Source: Catajapyx aquilonaris (lineage: Eukaryota). From it: a DNA stretch of 64,000 nucleotides. This document shows positions 9,901 through 62,939 of the stretch, in pieces. Below the pieces are notes generated by a model, which saw nothing but the letters and a program-made list of their open reading frames with translations, was not told the origin of the DNA and made no database searches. The position numbers were made by a program, and so were the translations under genes. Each line of letters begins with the position of its first letter. Position 1 is the stretch's first letter. The stretch spans positions 62,001-126,000 of the forward strand of contig JYFJ02000337.1 of NCBI GenBank assembly GCA_000934665.2, given 5' to 3'.

Positions 9901-11518
9901 AGAAATAACACCTCATAAATGTCTGGAGATGCTATCGGTCGTGTTGGTTTTAATGGCTATTGGCTCGGGCATATCGGTATGGTCGTATGTAGGTGGTTTA
10001 ATTAAGAATAGATTAATGAGGACAAGGTTGATTATGCTTATGATGTACTGGCAATAATTTCTAGTACAGTATATTTTCGGCTACAGGTGGTGTTTTTTAC
10101 TGGATGAGCGACATTTTATATATGCATATATGTCGTCTCACAGGCTACATGTGATTTTATCATTAATAAATTTGTGCCCTAATTACTATTACGAAAGATA
10201 TTATTAATAGAAGCGTCTCAAATTATTCCACAAAAATCAATTATCTTACTCTATTATAGGCATATTAATTTGATAAATTAATAGTAATTAAGATTTTACA
10301 GATAATCAATAGGCTATTGTTCAGTAATGGAAGCTATTTAAATTTTCTTATCGTTTCACAATTAATAAATTTTGAGAAAAATCATAATTACATTAATATA
10401 TTTCCCTATAAGTCAGTGATGAAGGATAGGGCCTACTCAAGTTAACCACAAGTAGGCTATGAGCTGAACGTGACACATTCTGTCTTATAAATGTAGCAAA
10501 ATTCCTTATGCCATCTTTATCACTGACTTCCCTTTATACGAAAATTTCATTAATCAACATCAAGTCATCAACACATGTCCTTGTTAAAGTTCGGCAGCAA
10601 TGAATCACAATCACTGAATTAGCTAAAATATGACTCATACTATAGGCCTATACAGGAAAATACATTACAAGCAAAATTACAATTGATTTTTACCATTATT
10701 TCAGCCAGCTCACAAGCCATAGGCCCTACTATTGGTGATTAAAAATTCCATTACCGACCCGTACAAGATATGGCGGTCCAGAAATGACATCTCATAAATG
10801 TCCCTATATGATGGCATCGACAGAAGCTCCGCTGGTTTTAATGGCCAATCAAACTAGCGATGATATCGATATGCACCCCTGCGAGCCATGGAGTTTAACG
10901 ACTCCCATGAACAAGAGTTGTGGATAGTATCGACGGCATTCCGGCTTAATGACGCCATTGAACCGTGGTTAGGTAAGAACACGGGTTGCCAGATGTGGTC
11001 GGTTCCTGTAAATCGGAGGAAACAAGGGGGTGGAGATGGCCAGCTCTTCTCCCTGGGATGTCACTGATTACATGGATCACCAGGGGTTAGAGAGAGAGAG
11101 AGAAAAAAAAACTCCAAAGACGGAAAAAAGAGTAGAATTTAATGAGACGCCTCGACGCAACTTAACCGCCGTTACTTGAATTCGGAGAGACGTTTGCGAT
11201 CACACTCCGCCTTTAAATGAGCCTATTAGACACCCCTGAAGTCAGCGGGTGGAAACGATTACCATTTTTTCTATGGTCGGCGAATTAAAAGGCGCAGGAA
11301 TGTCATCTGGTAACACTTCTCAACAAAAGAGTCTCCCACAAATAAAGCCTACAAATGAGCTTATCAGTGTTAATTAGTGCGTTTCAATCCCAATGTCATT
11401 GCTTACCTGGGGTATACCCGTAAATATCTTCACGCCATTAAACGCTGAGAGTTAAACCTTTATAGGTGCCATGATTTTGGATCAGAGTCACCCCCATACA
11501 ACTGGGACAAGGCCACAA

Positions 11519-11598
11519 TGGTGCCAGCTGGGATTCGAACATAACTACTTCAGGGTACGCGTATAGACCACCCTTGCCTCATTGCCCATGCCAGACCC
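11519..11598 (-). mobile_element. degenerate tRNA-derived sequence (SINE head or pseudo-tRNA)
   Basis: Minus strand ends GTTCGAATCCCAGCTGGCACCA (B box, CCA-like end) with a weak A-box-like segment upstream; no clean cloverleaf. Confidence 0.4.
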
Positions 11599-12012
11599 TC
11601 TCCCCCACCCTCCTGCCGGCATTTGAATTTTTAAGCGCACCCCCAGGCGGTCAAGGCAGACACGCCATGAATCGGAGACAGATTGTGTTCTCTCCCCCTG
11701 TTGTATCGGGAAGGTTTTACCTAAGACGAATAAACTCCGGTAAGCCGAGAGACAGGTACAATCCAGAAAACCCTCAGGCAACAGCCCTATTGTCCAAGGC
11801 TTCTCCGGTAGATGGCGGCTGCGTCTGGTTCCTGTGTAGTACAGTACCGACGTCACAGCAATTGTTAGAATTGTTTTAACTTACGCAGGGACGTCAGTAC
11901 CATTTTAAGACTAAATAAAGGGATGAAAGCAAATTGGCATGGATCTGGAAACAGCAGTGTATTTCCCACATTGGTACAAAAATAAATTATGGAACAATTT
12001 TTTCTCACAAAA

Positions 12013-12020
12013 TATGTACA
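12013..12020 (-). promoter_or_regulatory. Pumilio response element in presumed hairy 3'UTR
   Basis: mRNA-sense TGTACATA matches UGUANAUA. Confidence 0.5.
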
Positions 12021-12033
12021 ACAAAAGTATCTT

Positions 12034-12056
12034 GGGAAGACGTTGGATTTTGTTGT
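12034..12056 (-). promoter_or_regulatory. extended miR-7 target site (GY box plus 3' pairing) in presumed hairy 3'UTR
   Basis: Plus strand GGGAAGACGTTGGATTTTGTTGT vs miR-7 UGGAAGACUAGUGAUUUUGUUGU: 18/23 identical (nt 2-8 and 13-23), so the minus-strand mRNA is complementary; about 545 nt past the stop codon. Confidence 0.85.
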
Positions 12057-12057
12057 G

Positions 12058-12065
12058 TAAGGCAC
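12058..12065 (-). promoter_or_regulatory. miR-124 8mer seed site in presumed hairy 3'UTR
   Basis: mRNA-sense GTGCCTTA (plus strand TAAGGCAC = miR-124 nt 1-8). Confidence 0.55.
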
Positions 12066-12600
12066 TTTACAATGTTGCACTGATAAGAACCTACAATATT
12101 AACACACGACACAATGGGTTTAACCACATGTCAAAAAATATTCCTTAAATTCAACATTACAAGTAAAAAGAAGAAACGTGCTTTGCTGTAACTACAACAA
12201 TTAAAAATATTGGAAGTAAAAACTGGATAGATTGCGCTTACATAACAAAGAGTTGCCACCTTAACAATAAAAAAGTAGCCATTCGAGATCCAAGTAAATA
12301 GTCAAGCGATAACTACAGCTTCTTTCAACTGCAATATAAGGCTCGTCAGTCTTATCAACATCATCAACACAGCCGTGACTTGGACTCCTCCCTTTGATCA
12401 GGTGAAACTAGCAATTTACAAGGGAAGGAAAAAAAAAACACCTAGCAGGTTCGGCTAATGGTAACGGTGGCTTTTTAAAAAATGTACAAGGCAATACCCT
12501 ACAAATGTCCCACATGCATCACCTCGGCCGGAACCCCAACTCAACGGTCGCTGATTGTCAAGGCAGTTGGAAGGCCTCCCAGGTCATGCAAGGCACTGTG

Positions 12601-13365
12601 TCACCACGGACGCCACGGCCTGTCGTCCGAGTCTCCGGAGGAACCAGGTCGAGGGCTCTTGACCATCGCCAATGGTCGCGCCAGTCCGGGACTGCTCATC
12701 CTCAGCTCCGACACCTCACTGCTGGCAGGGCTCAGCGAACTTGGGGTCCTGGAACCCATGGACCCGACGGAACTGATAGGGCTGAGGGAAACACTTGGTC
12801 GAGGAACTGTCAGCTCAAGAGGTTTGTCCAGTGGGGTGGGGGACGACGGCGATGGTGTGGCCGAACTCATGTGCGTGTGCATCGGCATGGGTGGTGCTGA
12901 TGGTTGTTGCGGATGCTGCTGAGAAGCCGAAGAACTGGAGCTCAGATACTGGCTGGGCACCACGAAGGCAATGTCCCCGTTGGGCAACCGGGTAGGTACA
13001 AGTTGGAGTCCGCCGAACACGTTGCTTCCTTCCCCCGAGACGCTAGCACCGGAAGGTACCTGATGAAGTGGCGGTGCAGGTGCAGGTGGCGTACCGCTTC
13101 CCGTACTAGCAGACCCCGCAACTCCGTTCAGACATGTCCCAAGATGCGTCAACAGCCGCTGTTTCACCTGCTGGTCCACCGTCTCCACTCGGCTGATAAA
13201 CCGTCCCACTTCGTTAGCGCACTCGGCAAACCCCGCTCTGTACTTGTTGACCACACTGGGGTCAGCAGCAACCGCCAACGCCAACTGATGCCGCTGAAGC
13301 ACCTGCAGGTGTCTCACTGTCATCTCCAGGATATCCGCCTTCTCCAGCTTAGAATGCCTCGCCGG
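12601..13365 (-). CDS. h: hairy coding exon 3 (helix 2, Orange, Ser/Pro-rich region, WRPW)
   Basis: Acceptor [22 protein letters not shown] runs into the 240-aa ORF ending PWRPW-TGA. Confidence 0.95.
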   Translation of the reverse strand, partial: PARHSKLEKADILEMTVRHLQVLQRHQLALAVAADPSVVNKYRAGFAECANEVGRFISRVETVDQQVKQRLLTHLGTCLNGVAGSASTGSGTPPAPAPPLHQVPSGASVSGEGSNVFGGLQLVPTRLPNGDIAFVVPSQYLSSSSSASQQHPQQPSAPPMPMHTHMSSATPSPSSPTPLDKPLELTVPRPSVSLSPISSVGSMGSRTPSSLSPASSEVSELRMSSPGLARPLAMVKSPRPGSSGDSDDRPWRPW

Positions 13366-13670
13366 CTATAAATCGCAAAAGAACAAGTTAGCCACCACTC
13401 AAAACACCTAGAGAATCCGCATACTTACATCCTTCTTCATCGCATCCAGTATCAGATTCTTGAGCTCGTTCAGACAATTGTTGATCCGAGCCCTCCGTCT
13501 CTTCTCCATAATCGGCTTGTTGCTCTAAAAAAAAACAAGAAGACACATAAGATCCGGAAATCCCCCATCGAGAAAATCAAATCCCGTCAGATACATACCC
13601 TCCGATTGTCGCTGGCCGACTTCTTGGGCGCATTCTCCGCAGGCATGATCGCTCCCGAGTTGCTACACAT
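12601..13670 (-). CDS. h: hairy-like HES bHLH-Orange-WRPW transcriptional repressor, complement(join(12601..13365,13429..13524,13599..13670)), about 310 aa
   Basis: Spliced product reads [76 protein letters not shown]. It has the HES basic-region proline, an Orange domain ([16 protein letters not shown]), the [17 protein letters not shown] block, PLAMV (hairy PLSLV-like) and the C-terminus DDRPWRPW. Both introns are GT-AG, phase 0 (74 and 63 nt). Start is ambiguous: in-frame ATGs at 13754, 13670 and 13646. Confidence 0.93.
13429..13524 (-). CDS. h: hairy coding exon 2 (basic region and helix 1)
   Basis: 96 nt encoding [32 protein letters not shown]; acceptor (T)n-AG, donor GTAAGT; not in the ORF track. 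Confidence 0.95.
13599..13670 (-). CDS. h: hairy coding exon 1
   Basis: ATG at 13670 (or 13646, MPAE) to CGG AGG, followed by donor GTATGT at 13598. Confidence 0.8.
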
Positions 13671-13859
13671 AACCTCACAAATCCCAAGCCACACACCGCT
13701 TCCTTCGAGCACCACCTGAGGAATGAGCCTCTTCCTCCCCAAGGTTAGGGGCATGCGGTGCTTGAGGGTGGTGTAGGGGGAAGGGGGGGTAAAAGTTGTA
13801 GGTCCGGTCCGCCTGGGAGCAGCACACCAGTCGCGAGTCCGGACCGCGCCGCGAGTGTG

Positions 13860-14210
13860 ACCAGTGAGCGAGCCGGGAGTGTGGGAACCTCTTCTGATCC
13901 GCTCTCTGGCGACGTTCCAACAGACCCTCTGAGGGTGGAGGTTGTGAGGCGGGAGGGGTGGTGGGGGGTTGAAGCCCGCCGTGAGAAAACCCGAAAGCCC
14001 CCGTTTCCCAGGCCCTTCTCGGACCAATAGGAGACTCAGCCCGCTCCAACGGCATGCGCCGCCTGGATGGGGATTGGTCCGAACCGCATTCCCCGGACGT
14101 TTTATCTCCCGGCGGCCGTGACAACTGCTATCAGGCGTGCACGTGCCGCTACTTTCATCCGGGCGAGCTGGGAGTGTGGGAAAGCTTCACCTCGGCTCCT
14201 GTGGGAGTTG
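13860..14210 (-). promoter_or_regulatory. GC-rich hairy proximal promoter region
   Basis: Su(H) sites at 13880, 13980 and 14175; opposed CCAAT boxes in 14019-14028 and 14073-14082; class-B E-box GCACGTGCC at 14139-14147; transcription start not determinable. Confidence 0.6.
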
Positions 14211-17200
14211 TGGGGGGGAAAGAAAGGAGCGGGGGAGTCCTGGGGGAGTAGGAGGGAGGAGGAGGGAAGGGCATGCCTCTGGCAGCCTCTGGCCTTGCCG
14301 TGGTGCCGATAAGGGCCGGGCAGGATCGTGACTGACTGGCCGTTGTATGCGACTAGGGAGGGTGGTGGTAAGGGTGTCTTCACTGATTGCGGTAGCGCGG
14401 TTAATGAGCGGGTGGCGTATACTTATATTGCATTGGAAAAGAAATTATATGTGCTGATTAAATAAAGTTTGTTCAAATTACGATGAGCATTTTTGGCGAT
14501 TGTTTACAACCTGTTGCGCCATACAGGTGTATGAGAAGATGTACGACGAACAATCATGAACATATAGAAATGGTTTGACAAAAAAACAAACGAAAAAGGA
14601 TGCCGTGTGATTTATGTGGGATTGACCTACAAGGTCAGGGTTATTGTGGCTTGCTTAATAATGCGGAGATGCTGACGTTAGTTCGAACCTTTAAATTTGA
14701 GTACTGTAGGCATATAATATATATTGAAATATATGGTTTGAAAGTTATTCGATGTTGGACTCTAATTACTGAGACTGTTCAAACTAATAAACTGTAGCAA
14801 CAAAGACACGGCAATAAAAGCCTATATCGAATGACTGTCAAGATGGGTCCTGTAGCTGGGTCATATTAATCCTACATGAAACAAATAAAAGGTGGGTATT
14901 CTCCTTTACAGTAGACTTAGAATATGCACCGAATGTAATAATTACGAATGAGGCTGCTGCTGTAATAATAAACTAAACCAAACTAAATAAAAATGTACGC
15001 ATACAAAAGTCTGTCTATTATTGCGTCGTTTCCTTTTCTACCCACCTGTTCGAAGCTTTATTGGAAACTACAATTTCACCCACAATGCCCACATTTTTGT
15101 CACAAACCCACGTATCCGTACTGAATCATCACTTTAAGCATGCAGCATTGTCGGCACCAAATGAGTCAACACGGGTCACGGAAAGGTGATGCAATATGTG
15201 CTACATTTGTCAAAAATGCTTGAGTCACCTAAAAACGACCCGGCCTCACAAAAAAAAGTTTACACTCAACTTGTACCAATCCACGTGAACATGACTTGGA
15301 CTCCTTGGAATTCGCCTCTCAACATCGTGAATTCCGATAACCAACCCAAGATCACGCGACCGCACACCTTACATTCCTTATCAATAAGTGTGACCGACTT
15401 ATCACCGTGGGAACAGTTATCCGTGAGCTTATGCCAAGATTGCGCGACACAAAAAAAAGGGACAAACATTGCCATTTCAACCTCCCCCCAGGAAATACCA
15501 CCCTGACACAAAACCAGTCGCCAGAGACTGCCTGGCGATTGCTGGACAGCAGGGGCTATTATTTACGCTCAAATTGGCAAGGTTGTTGGTTGGCATCTTC
15601 GCCAAAAACCTCTTTTGCTCATGGCTGATCAAGAGTCCGCCCGTGCAAGAATAAAAAAACAACAACAGAACCCTGTTGTTTCAGAGGCCGGCACCTTGCA
15701 GGATTCCATCAGTACCGGTAATGGAAATAATAAAAAAAAGAAAGAAAAATCGTGAAGAGTCGCCACGCACACTTAGCAACCGCAACCCCATGCATTAATA
15801 AATAACCGAACAAGGTGCGCGGAATAATGCGCTAACTCCGTAAATCATATCATGCAGGTGGCGTGATTTGCAGTCGGTACGTGCGATATATTGTTCTAGA
15901 GCCCAGACCAATTCCTGATTAAATGTTACAACACCGCAGGGAGCTCCTTTCTTTCTTTCTTTCTTTCTTTCCAAGGCGGCCCATTCTTGTGGGCAATTGG
16001 CAGCCAGAGCGGGCGGCCAGACAGGCGACCAGGAGCCTGCCATGTCGCCCCGAGGGCCTTCCACAACCCCGAAGGAAAAAGGCAAAAAGGGGACACTCCG
16101 ATAATCATGGCTAGGGCCCCAGTGGGAAAAGAAAAGAAGAGAGAGAGAGAAAAAAAAGAGGACAGGAAGGAAGGGAGGGTTGTTCAAGAGGGGGCAAAAG
16201 CAACCCTCCCAGAGGCATGCCCCACTAACTTTGCCTCAACCCGCCTTCCCTTCCCACACTTCAAGTCAGGAAATTGTACCAAGGTGAATCCCCCAAAAAG
16301 GTAAAAAAGAAGAAAGATTTAAAAACACGTAATTAATAAAAATTAATAGCTATTTATAATAGTTTATTAATGAAATCGATCATTATCAGTAAGATTTTAT
16401 TGGTAACATTATTGTTTATTAGTTACATTTTAAAATTTAACTGTCGCTATTATTATTATTATTCGTAACATTAATAACTATTATTATAATATTACGGTCT
16501 AATATTTTATTAATTCACATTAATAAACATTTTAAATTCAATATTTTGCTTGTGGTGGTGGGCCAGGGTCATCCTGCTCAGAGCGTGAGAATGTCCAGTT
16601 CTGGTTGGTGGTTGAGCGCGATCAGACGCAAGGCAATGTGACCTCCCGACCACGGCATGGCGGATGAGGGGTCAAACCCACAGGGCGGAATGCTGACGTC
16701 AATAGCCAAAACACCCGCCACCCCGCCCATGTCTCCCTGATCTTCATCAGCACAAGCTCTGACCTGTCTATCGCGTGTTGGGGATCAGGAAACATTTCCA
16801 GTCCCCCCCTCCCCCTGTCTCTCTTTCGAAAACCTATAATCCCAGTGCGGGATCAGTCACGCTCCACTTGAGGTCCGGTCCAAAATTGGTCTGGTGACAG
16901 TTGCAGGTGCAGGTTACCGCCCACGCCCCTCGAGGCATGCGCTAATTTCAAATTGAAGTGGGCTACCACACCTTCTATTCGATATGTTTTTTTGTGTGTT
17001 TCCACCGTGGGAACCGTACAATGTAAATTACTTGAAAATATGCAATCATACAACGCAAATGGGGCTTAGCGAGTCCCAAACATAATTGGCTGTGCGTGAC
17101 TTTGTCCTTACCCGTATATATTGTGGCCAACAAAATGACAACTTCTCAAAAATGAAGTGCAAAGTTGATATTCGAGTATATAAATTCCTCGGGCTCCGGC

Positions 17201-59800: not shown

Positions 59801-62800
59801 ACGAACCCATCTAACGGTCGCTCAAATTATTCAGTGCTTTCCTCTACATTGCCCACCCTAACCCAAATTGGTTCCTTCTATACAAAAAAAAAGTAGGCTA
59901 ATAACTGTCACCAAGTGCAGGAACGTACTTTTCCCACGCTCCACACTACTACTAATGTAGCAGTATAGTCTTGACTCGCCAATTTTTATGGGGTCAAATG
60001 ATTGCACTTAATATGCATAAAAATTGTTGATAAGTGCATTCAATGCATATTGTAAAAAAATTGCATTTTTTGACAATAAACCTTGAATGCAATGTATGAT
60101 AAGAGTGAATCTCAATAATTTGAATAATTCAGCCTATGATAGAATTGAAATAATTGAACCTACGTGATATGAGCACGTTTCAGTCAAATATATGACTAAA
60201 ACACATTGTCAATCCATATTCGGAACCACACAAAATGCGTCATAGTATCCAGTGTCCGTTATATAGGCAGGATTTATTGCCCACATTGACTGCTTTCTAG
60301 TGATGTGGGTGTCTACATATTGGCAATCAACCACACGTTTTCAGAACCAGTGTCTCCTTCCCATAATCTAGGGCTGATCGGAATGTCGCCCCTGACACGA
60401 AACACCGTCGCTTTTCCTTCAAAAAATTGACGGTTGGCACATTCTTTTTTTTTTGTCGCTGCAATGACAAACGCAAGCAAGTACCCCCAGATTATCGCAC
60501 GTTGAATAATCCCGATGATTAGTCATGTCGAAACCACCTCTTCTGGCAACCTTCCCCTTCTGGTCTCTCCCCCTCTCTTTTTATTACTGAAAAGGTCTTG
60601 AAGAGGAGGGGGTTAGAGTGTACCTAGTGTAAAGGAGCCGTATCTCCCCACTTTTTCCCACCGTGGATGCCGAGGGTGCGATCTGCAACCAAGGCAATCC
60701 GGATGGACGAGAAAAAGGAACAAGAGGAGCCAGTTTCGCCCTGTTGGACATTCCCAAGACCCCGCTGCACTGCCAACAATCTAATTAATCCCACGGTTCT
60801 AGGGGGTAATTAGGCCCTGTTAGACTTGCTTCCTTTACCGGACATCCACTCCTGGACTGGGGGGAACAGGAGAGAGGAGGGGAGGACATTACACCCCGCC
60901 CTTTTCTTCCCTTGGATATATCTTCCCAAGACCAGTTTCAATGGAACTTGTCTGCAACCTACAGATTCTTCACGGGTTGAAAGTCATAACTCCGGGAGTA
61001 GGTGACAACTCGGCACAAATGAATTTGTTTCTCACGTGGGAAAGGAAGCGGGGCACTGTGTCCTATCATGGGAAAATGTCCAACGATGATGTCCAGAAAT
61101 AAGGGACGAATTGATTGCGTCAGAAACCAACGGAATTATGATATTCACATTAAGAATTTAAAAGAACTGGAGGTAATGTACCACCCTGTAGTAACAACAT
61201 CCTTCATGTTACAGCCAGCACGACATTCGAAGCTGGAGAAGGCAGATATCCTGGAAATGACTGTGAAGCACCTGCAGACTGTCCAGAGGCAGCAGCTCGC
61301 CATTGCTGTGGCTACTGATCCATCGGTGTTGCTCAAATTTAAGACTGGATTTAGCGAGTGTGCTGCTGAAGTAGGTTTGCCAGCTGCTATTGCGTTTCAT
61401 GAGACTAACCAGATGTTGCTTTGTGCAGGTCAGTAGGTATATCAGTCGCATTGAAGGAGTTGACCCAGCTGTCCGGCAGAGACTGCTGTCCCATCTGGCC
61501 CATTGTGTCAATGGACTGCAGCAGCTTACTCCTCTGACCTTTGGCGCTGTCACAGCTCCAGGACTGGCCAACTACCCGATTGGAACCGCAGTCAGTTCCA
61601 CTCTGGCCAACGGTGGACTTCCATCCGTGTTGCCACAGGTTAGTTACACGCTTGATGCCAAGCACTGATAGAAAACAAGCACTAACAACTTTTTGATACT
61701 TGTTGTAACTGAACTACTTTTTCTAGACTAACTCCTGACAAAACAGATTATAGTTGGTGATTTATATTAGTCTTCAGTGTCAGTCTCAATCATGTGATGA
61801 ATTGCTGTTTATTAATTTAGGTTGGATTACCCTCTTGCGATGCCCTTGCTGGAGCATATTATTAACTTAATTTTTTGAGAATGTGGCACTGAACTTATTG
61901 AATTGTTAAGAACTAGAAACAATGGGTGGAATTTTCGTCACACTGCCAGTTACTCTACTGCTAACTTATCAGTTCCAGTGTAGTGCATTACTGGTACTGC
62001 TAAGCTAGCACCAACTAGCAGGGCAAGGAAAATAAATTCCACCCAATGGCAGTAACAAAGTATTGTCTCTTGAACATTAGTAAGATTATTGAGCTTGAGT
62101 TATGGTAGATTTACCTAAATTAATACATTCAGATGGCAAATAAATGTACGATTTTTACGTCATTGCAGGTTCCATTTCCAGCAGGCGATGTGAACAACAA
62201 CCATTCCCGACTGATGAATGGCCTGCAGCTGATCCCAAGCCGGCTGCCTAGTGGTGAACTTGCTCTTCTCCTGCCCAGTGGAACTCACATGAATGGGGTT
62301 CTTCCCTTCTTCTCTCCTGCAACCACCACCACTGCAACATCCACCGCAACAGCAGCCACTGCACCTGCAATTCCTACTGCCACTATCACAAGTGCCACCA
62401 TCAATGACCGCTCACATCCAAGTGCCTTCACTGCTGTGCTCCGCTGCCAAAGTCCACTCTCTACCAGCAGTGGGACCGAATCCCAGTCACCTAAGCAGGC
62501 TGCCAGTCCTACATCGTCAGCACCACTCTCCGGTTCAGACACTGATGTCAGATACTCAGGAACAGCCACCATAACATCGGCTGGAAATGCATTTCACTTC
62601 CCAGATGCCCCATGTGTCAATGATACTGCATTTCCAAGCACATCATGGAGCAATGAATCGCGGCAGAGCAAGGTCATTGTCAACCACGTGAACCACAACA
62701 ATGCTGAAAACAAGGACCCACTCGACTTTTCCATCAAGGGCATGAAGCGGCCAGCTGATGAAGTGCCGGACGGTGCTCCTCCTATCAAGATGGAGAAGGC

Positions 62801-62939
62801 CGCATTGCCATACGTGGGCATGCGTGAGAATGCAAAGGTGGTGCGAGTGGAGCCTCTCAGGCCTCAAAGGTACCTTCTGGTGCAGGACTTGTCCCAGCCA
62901 TCCACATCGGCCAACAAGGACATGTGGAGGCCGTGGTAA
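56762..62939 (+). CDS. dpn: deadpan-like HES bHLH-Orange-WRPW repressor, join(56762..56839,59349..59444,61215..61370,61429..61638,62169..62939), about 436 aa
   Basis: Spliced product reads [86 protein letters not shown]...[31 protein letters not shown]...|...[17 protein letters not shown]...[31 protein letters not shown] and IPSRLPSGE match Deadpan better than Hairy as I recall them. All four introns are GT-AG, phase 0. Alternative in-frame ATG at 56735. Confidence 0.9.
59349..59444 (+). CDS. dpn: deadpan coding exon 2 (basic region and helix 1)
   Basis: 96 nt; TTACAG|AGC AAC AAG CCG ATC ATG...AAA GAC|GTAAGT; not in the ORF track. Confidence 0.95.
61029..61042. promoter_or_regulatory. overlapping inverted Su(H) sites around a CACGTG E-box, deadpan intron 2
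   Basis: TTCTCACGTGGGAA = TTCTCACG + CGTGGGAA sharing a CG. Confidence 0.55.
61215..61370 (+). CDS. dpn: deadpan coding exon 3 (helix 2, start of Orange)
   Basis: TTACAG|CCA GCA CGA...GCT GAA|GTAGGT; 52 codons. Confidence 0.93.
61429..61638 (+). CDS. dpn: deadpan coding exon 4 (rest of Orange)
   Basis: Follows a 58-nt intron with a CTAAC branch-point motif and TGCAG acceptor; [10 protein letters not shown]...SVLPQ; donor GTTAGT. Confidence 0.9.
62169..62939 (+). CDS. dpn: deadpan coding exon 5 (C-terminal region, WRPW)
   Basis: TTGCAG|GTT CCA; contains [17 protein letters not shown] and ends MWRPW-TAA. Confidence 0.93.
   Translation, partial: VPFPAGDVNNNHSRLMNGLQLIPSRLPSGELALLLPSGTHMNGVLPFFSPATTTTATSTATAATAPAIPTATITSATINDRSHPSAFTAVLRCQSPLSTSSGTESQSPKQAASPTSSAPLSGSDTDVRYSGTATITSAGNAFHFPDAPCVNDTAFPSTSWSNESRQSKVIVNHVNHNNAENKDPLDFSIKGMKRPADEVPDGAPPIKMEKAALPYVGMRENAKVVRVEPLRPQRYLLVQDLSQPSTSANKDMWRPW

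Follow-up and report, generated by a model that had tools for sequence, protein, structure and literature searches.

A hairy-type gene in the 64 kb window (the whole stretch of DNA analysed here) carries in the untranslated region at its 3' end (3'UTR), at positions 12056 to 12034 of the minus strand, a site that pairs with miR-7 at the seed and again at the miRNA's 3' end, with a loop of unpaired nucleotides between the two blocks. This is almost certainly a real, expressed miR-7 binding site, and its arrangement, apart from seed strength, is that of the TDMD triggers, which bring about the decay of the miRNA that they bind. On balance, we read it as an element that may trigger Dora/ZSWIM8-dependent decay of miR-7 in some cells while also permitting repression of hairy, and most likely as the putative evolutionary counterpart of the miR-7 trigger in the hairy (h) gene of Drosophila.

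The host gene and its mature transcript

The host gene is a hairy-type bHLH-Orange-WRPW gene on the minus strand, with three exons in the region covered by RNA. The first, as far as the RNA contig reaches, lies at 13599–13848 and contains a probable start codon at 13646-13644, from which an open frame begins MPAENAP...; the in-frame open stretch continues upstream of this codon through the whole RNA contig. Exon 2 (13429–13524, 96 nt) encodes the basic region and helix 1 of the bHLH domain, and the last exon (12601–13365) encodes helix 2, the Orange domain and the terminal WRPW. The introns between them, at 13525-13598 (74 nt) and 13366-13428 (63 nt), both have GT..AG edges and are very short. 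The last-exon open frame has 254 codons and a C-terminus of ...DDRPWRPW, directly followed by a TGA stop at 12603-12601. Pfam finds Hairy Orange (PF07527) in the last exon at 63.1 bits (2.9e-17), and HLH (PF00010) over two exons, at 31.6 bits (1.4e-07) in exon 2 and 19.6 bits at the start of the last exon. The two HLH matches span profile positions 4-28 and 32-53, and the bHLH reading frame stays open when the exons are joined at the splice joints.

The protein was placed in a careful maximum-likelihood tree of 44 rows, in which the rows carry the names given by the databases; orthology to fly h is traced through the named insect proteins, as the D. melanogaster sequence is not among the rows. 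The clade into which it falls has moderate support (93/90, ultrafast bootstrap/SH-aLRT) and takes in Artemia, Strigamia and every one of the 14 insect rows that bear the name hairy or hairy-like; the protein lies outside the winged-insect clade (99/97). Its best database relative is a mayfly protein at 45% identity, followed by chelicerate and beetle proteins. This low identity, together with the tree position, indicates that the host is an arthropod outside Pterygota that is poorly represented in the databases. An initial annotation, made from the letters of the window, had named the gene hairy; the Orange match, the split HLH domain, the terminal WRPW and the hairy clade bear this out.

A second bHLH-Orange-WRPW gene lies on the plus strand at 61200-61382 and 62124-62939, ends in ...KDMWRPW with its stop at 62939, and is placed in the deadpan clade (99/97). 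The hairy-type and deadpan-type genes are thus about 48 kb apart on opposite strands. Among 15 other long open frames of the window Pfam gave one hit, which belongs to this second HES gene. The heptamer GTCTTCC is absent from the 1,060 nt that follow the deadpan-type stop inside the window.

Presence of the site in mature mRNA was established with X5, a run from a sample and a study that differ from those of the likely source, namely four runs of one sample, including the DNA run X1. None of these five runs is recorded as RNA, the kind of X5 being entered as '?'. Comparison of X5 with positions 10400-14600 nevertheless yielded a single contig of 1,772 nt, which matches 11940-13365, 13429-13524 and 13599-13848 letter for letter. 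The contig omits 63 and 74 nt whose edges are CT..AC on the plus strand, and hence GT..AG on the coding strand, and these splice joints are absent from the DNA run X1, which is colinear over the same region. Because the spliced contig runs through the site, the site is in mature mRNA. The contig covers at least 661 nt of 3'UTR (11940–12600), in which the site occupies positions 545-567 after the stop. The transcript does not end before position 12056, the ending that would have removed the site from the hairy mRNA to which the initial annotation assigned it; the contig passes the site by 94 nt. Nine poly(A) hexamer variants were sought between the stop codon and the site, and none was found; the first poly(A)-signal-like hexamer past the stop is AATACA at 11958–11963. 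The RNA contig ends at 11940, 18 nt beyond this hexamer, which is a hint to the end of the transcript, the end of a contig being no proof of the end of an RNA.

Pairing with miR-7 and comparison with known triggers

Read from 12056 to 12034, the letters of the site run ACAACAAAATC-CAAC-GTCTTCC-C. The 3'-pairing block ACAACAAAATC (12046–12056) is joined to miR-7 nt 13-23 by an unbroken run of 11 Watson-Crick pairs and so extends to the last nucleotide of the miRNA. The target-side loop CAAC (12042–12045) lies opposite nt 9-12, where neither a Watson-Crick nor a G:U pair can form at any of the four positions, giving a 4x4 internal loop. The GY box GTCTTCC (12035–12041), which occurs only once in the 661-nt 3'UTR, pairs with nt 2-8. 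The C at 12034 stands opposite miR-7 nt 1, where an A would give an 8mer, and the seed match is therefore a 7mer-m8. The dinucleotides adjoining it are AC and CC/CA, so that it lacks the high-affinity context of an 8mer with A/U flanks. ViennaRNA duplexfold gives -23.2 kcal/mol for the full duplex, with nt 2-8 and 13-23 paired, and -11.1 kcal/mol for the 3' block alone. Both the letters and the pairing pattern agree exactly with those described in the initial annotation.

The reference miR-7 was taken from the 23-nt 5p arms of two metagenome hairpins, L033 and L056, which are identical to each other and, compared by eye, to the dme-miR-7-5p entry of Sheng 2023 Supplementary Data 1. These were two of seven loci tested, and scored 65.2 and 60.8 bits, respectively, against an Rfam mir-7 (RF00053) gathering threshold of 51.8. 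The host's own miR-7 presumably has this canonical sequence; the miRNA is described in the literature as bilaterian and seldom lost.

Validated TDMD triggers have been surveyed in a review (PMC10899785), according to which seed pairing is universal, at least 6 contiguous 3' pairs are present in 12 of 13, the 3' pairing usually begins at nt 12 or 13, 3-11 nt are unpaired, and the 3' pairing energy lies between -9.6 and -17.1 kcal/mol. The hairy site pairs perfectly at nt 2-8 and has 11 contiguous 3' pairs beginning at nt 13, and its 4x4 internal loop disrupts positions 9-10; its 3' energy of -11.1 kcal/mol is also within the range, albeit in an approximate comparison of a ViennaRNA value with a range obtained by RNAstructure. 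It is situated, moreover, in an untranslated region of expressed, spliced RNA. Where it departs from the pattern is in seed strength, since most validated triggers have an 8mer seed with flanking A/U dinucleotides, a feature given as typical and not universal, and a CYRANO mutant with a 7mer-A1 seed lost 75% of its activity (PMC10899785). The TDMD-like architecture claimed at the outset thus stands in everything except seed strength, and its loop has the length of that in wild-type CYRANO, which is reported as 4 nt on the target side (PMC13083262). The same report describes substantially less ZSWIM8 binding and AGO polyubiquitylation when the length of the CYRANO loop is altered, and contact between ZSWIM8 and the RNA 5' of the trigger site.

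The closest known system is the fly h element. In AGO1-CLASH of Dora-knockout S2 cells h/miR-7 was one of five TDMD triggers, which were validated by CRISPR deletion, northern blots and small-RNA-seq and which, according to the same paper, were also predicted and validated by the Bartel group (Sheng 2023, PMC10102002); the Drosophila trigger that the initial annotation mentioned is thus correct for S2 cells. The h:miR-7 hybrids were 8-fold enriched in the Dora knockout, and the element has a conservation score of 2.41, a moderate insect phyloP (Sheng 2023). As a miR-7 target hairy goes back to Stark 2003, cited in John 2004 and in Brennecke 2005 (PMC1043860), the latter describing the fly hairy site as a 9mer seed with 3' complementarity, and reporting that six drosophilid UTRs conserve its seed as well as how far its 3' pairing extends. 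The host site is like fly h in its gene class, its miRNA, its single 3'UTR position and its succession of seed, central unpaired nucleotides and pairing to the end of the miRNA. The fly element pairs miR-7 nt 1-9, 12-13 and 16-23 with a dG of -21.3 (Sheng 2023 Supplementary Data 1), and the two differ accordingly: the fly seed covers nt 1-9 (8mer/9mer) whereas that of the host is the weaker 7mer-m8; the fly 3' pairing is interrupted and includes a G:U pair within nt 16-23, whereas the 11 pairs of the host are uninterrupted, Watson-Crick and cleaner; and the fly target loop is longer than the clean 4x4 loop of the host. Demonstrated trigger activity belongs to the fly site only, and to S2 cells only.

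Cyrano (OIP5-AS1), the miR-7 trigger known from vertebrates, offers a second comparison, in which homology is not implied. It is a lncRNA with an 8mer seed and, as reviewed, 14 contiguous 3' pairs (PMC10899785). What the host site shares with it is miR-7, a seed with extensive 3' pairing to the end of the miRNA, and the 4-nt target loop. In placing a GTCTTCC heptamer within a HES-family repressor's 3'UTR, the host site also resembles the GY-box miR-7 sites of Notch-pathway genes, a class reportedly described by Lai et al. in 2005. Ordinary GY-box sites differ in being seed-type and repressive with no long 3' pairing, as exemplified by an 8mer in the contig L120 (see below). Other mRNA 3'UTR triggers share a similar seed, loop and 3' design, with duplexes of -19.5 to -24.4, although the genes and the miRNAs are different (Sheng 2023 Supplementary Data 1).

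Function of the site

In the mechanism that we propose, Ago1 loaded with miR-7 would dock on the seed match, and the 3' block would then zip up to nt 23, drawing the miRNA's 3' end from the PAZ pocket. The internal loop would block slicing and bend the duplex, and the ZSWIM8/Dora cullin-RING ligase could read this conformation and ubiquitylate Ago1, upon which miR-7 would be degraded. The same site would also let miR-7 repress hairy, so that hairy and miR-7 would each act against the other, as h mRNA has been shown to do in Drosophila S2 cells.

That the site is a functionless chance match would be suggested by the seed heptamer by itself, which is at chance-level frequency: the window has 9 copies of GTCTTCC where 7.13 would be expected, and a count of 9 or more was reached in 28 of 100 shuffles. 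The full design behaves differently. At up to three mismatches the 22-nt two-block pattern has one match in the window, which is the real site with no mismatches, against a mean of 0.11 in shuffled sequence, where 11 of 100 shuffles had a match. When a first-order Markov model was used to simulate the 661-nt 3'UTR 400,000 times, 8,767 of the simulated sequences contained the seed, and in only 7 was it accompanied, within 1-10 nt, by 8 or more contiguous 3' pairs, which is a looser criterion than the 11 pairs of the real site. The site is, furthermore, the single lowest-energy miR-7 duplex on the two strands of the window (128 kb in total), the runner-up reaching -22.6 with no seed-type pairing, and its host gene is orthologous to the one fly gene known as a miR-7 trigger. 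We therefore regard a chance match as exceedingly improbable. The second-best miR-7 duplex within the hairy 3'UTR, at 12168-12207 on the minus strand (-18.7 kcal/mol), depends on G:U pairing and does not match the seed canonically, and for these reasons is probably not a site.

A greater claim on our attention comes from repression. The site could be a strong repressive miR-7 site whose 3' block provides supplementary pairing only, with no meaningful degradation of miR-7, and we consider this possible though rather doubtful. In flies, experiments support hairy as a target of miR-7, the 7mer-m8 seed is weaker and its flanking context poor, and deletion of the h trigger left miR-7 unchanged in total RNA of adult flies (Sheng 2023, PMC10102002). 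About half of the trigger predictions made from architecture fail validation, as the reviewed figures illustrate: 5 of the 11 sites predicted in flies were validated, and 20 of the 37 from TDMDfinder (PMC10899785). The seed again counts against the trigger reading, as does the 3' block being mostly paired within the mRNA (predicted unpaired probability 0.22). Set against repression alone, however, are the 11 contiguous pairs reaching nt 23, far more than the 3-5 bp of ordinary 3'-supplementary pairing (PMC10899785), and the orthologous fly site, an active trigger in S2 cells even though its 3' pairing is weaker (8 pairs with one G:U among them, plus 2).

The internal pairing of the 3' block arises from a weak hairpin that contains the site, at 12018–12056 on the minus strand (-7.3 kcal/mol). 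Its 9-bp outer stem joins ACAACAAAA with UUUUGUUGU, and an inner 5-bp stem joins GUCUU with AAGAU and overlaps the seed match in part. In its 3' arm, UUUUGUUGU, the hairpin repeats the letters of miR-7 nt 15-23, and it is this arm that pairs with the 3' block of the site itself. The seed match has a predicted unpaired probability of 0.39, which equals the mean of the UTR. Since the hairpin is far weaker than the duplex with the miRNA, we take it as a possible modulator of the site and not an obstacle; it may serve to mask the site, or it may be fortuitous. A very improbable alternative would make the functional element the hairpin itself, for example as a protein-binding stem-loop, or a plus-strand mir-7-like gene, the complementarity to miR-7 being incidental. 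Consistent with this, the fold beats 198 of 200 shuffles (z -2.93; 2 of 200 fold as well), and the 3' arm copies letters of miR-7. The hairpin is nonetheless weak and leaves the perfect seed match unexplained, and in a plus-strand precursor the complementary arm would have to stand on the other side. Rfam searches of both strands of 11850-12250 at E values up to 10 gave three far sub-threshold matches, no mir-7 among them, and the whole window gave nothing at the gathering threshold; an antisense mir-7-like gene was rejected on these results.

Age of the hairy/miR-7 pair and counterparts elsewhere

Shared descent with the fly site seems to us likelier than an origin of its own. A likeness between miR-7 sites is forced by the miRNA that they share, and likeness alone therefore cannot show descent. 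The earlier suggestion that the circuit is much older than flies draws on two points only, the host and Drosophila, and both paired blocks may be conserved in other arthropods. Conservation of the fly site is described, in the sources consulted, only among drosophilids (Brennecke 2005), together with a moderate insect phyloP (Sheng 2023).

An unlikely alternative is convergence, whereby a functional miR-7 site or trigger evolved apart from the fly site and gives no clue to how old the circuit is. The likeness would be dictated by complementarity to one and the same miRNA, the loops differ in letters and in length (4 nt here, longer in the fly), and in flies the hairy 3' pairing keeps its degree and not its letters (Brennecke 2005, PMC1043860); the comparison is also confined to the host and Drosophila. 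Against this, the gene, the miRNA, the type of UTR region and the two-block design are all common to both. Chance recurrence in a given UTR is in the order of 2 in 100,000, so that convergence would need repeated selection for the same design.

On the reading of common descent, it is a tentative possibility that much of Arthropoda inherited the hairy/miR-7 trigger pair, which would reach back at least to the common ancestor of the fly and the host. Were this so, it would exceed in age every TDMD trigger-miRNA pair known, among them that of Cyrano, which is reported to have arisen in bony vertebrates (PMC13125240), and reciprocal hairy/miR-7 antagonism would be an ancient part of HES-gene patterning circuits. 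A bolder addition to the ancestral pair is that the UUUUGUUGU hairpin might mask the site and so gate access to the trigger. Validated endogenous TDMD triggers number only a handful, and a cleaner site of the same design in a distant arthropod suggests that trigger function has been selected over very long times. We found no report in the literature of a hairy/miR-7 trigger outside flies. Work from the Bartel group by Kingston et al. in 2022, which reportedly deals with the Drosophila h trigger for miR-7, may address its conservation. With its better 3' helix and its weaker seed, the host site is a natural variant on which the features that matter could be tested, and it would link the turnover of miR-7, beyond the fly model, to control by a repressor that acts in segmentation and neurogenesis.

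Counterparts were sought in metagenomes and in prokaryote and viral contigs. None of the 119 metagenome matches to the two-block pattern that were listed (at least 119 loci) has a WRPW stop within 2 kb upstream, and nearly all look like bacterial chance matches. Prokaryote genome contigs contain at least 110 two-block loci, and 80 of 80 titles among those shown are bacterial or archaeal. When the host protein and a 29-row alignment were used as queries, two HES-like contigs came up and no others, both of them contaminants of prokaryote assemblies (L120 and L121/L232); the two assemblies gave no further HES genes, and the protein-guided scan of viral contigs gave no HES-like loci. GTCTTCC is absent from L121/L232, which was not placed in the tree. 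L120 is a host-derived contig binned in a Dysgonomonas MAG and carries a deadpan-like last exon whose best protein-database hit is 44% identical; it was rejected as a hairy orthologue, as the tree places it beside the deadpan clade. It contains (L120:903-1200) an 8mer miR-7 seed match, GTCTTCCA, 262 nt past the stop and with no 3' pairing, and a sense copy of the miR-7 seed is found about 80 nt upstream of the 8mer match.

A near-identical two-block site is present in L005, a 1,413-nt eukaryote-like metagenome contig in which HES or hairy coding sequence is absent; it lies at L005:590-615 in UTR-like sequence, with the loop CAAT and an A opposite nt 1. The metagenome loci L101, L106 and L118, which with 300-nt flanks score below the Rfam mir-7 gathering threshold, contain a perfect complement of miR-7 nt 2-22 with the gap ACTA, and may be divergent mir-7 genes or fully complementary sites.
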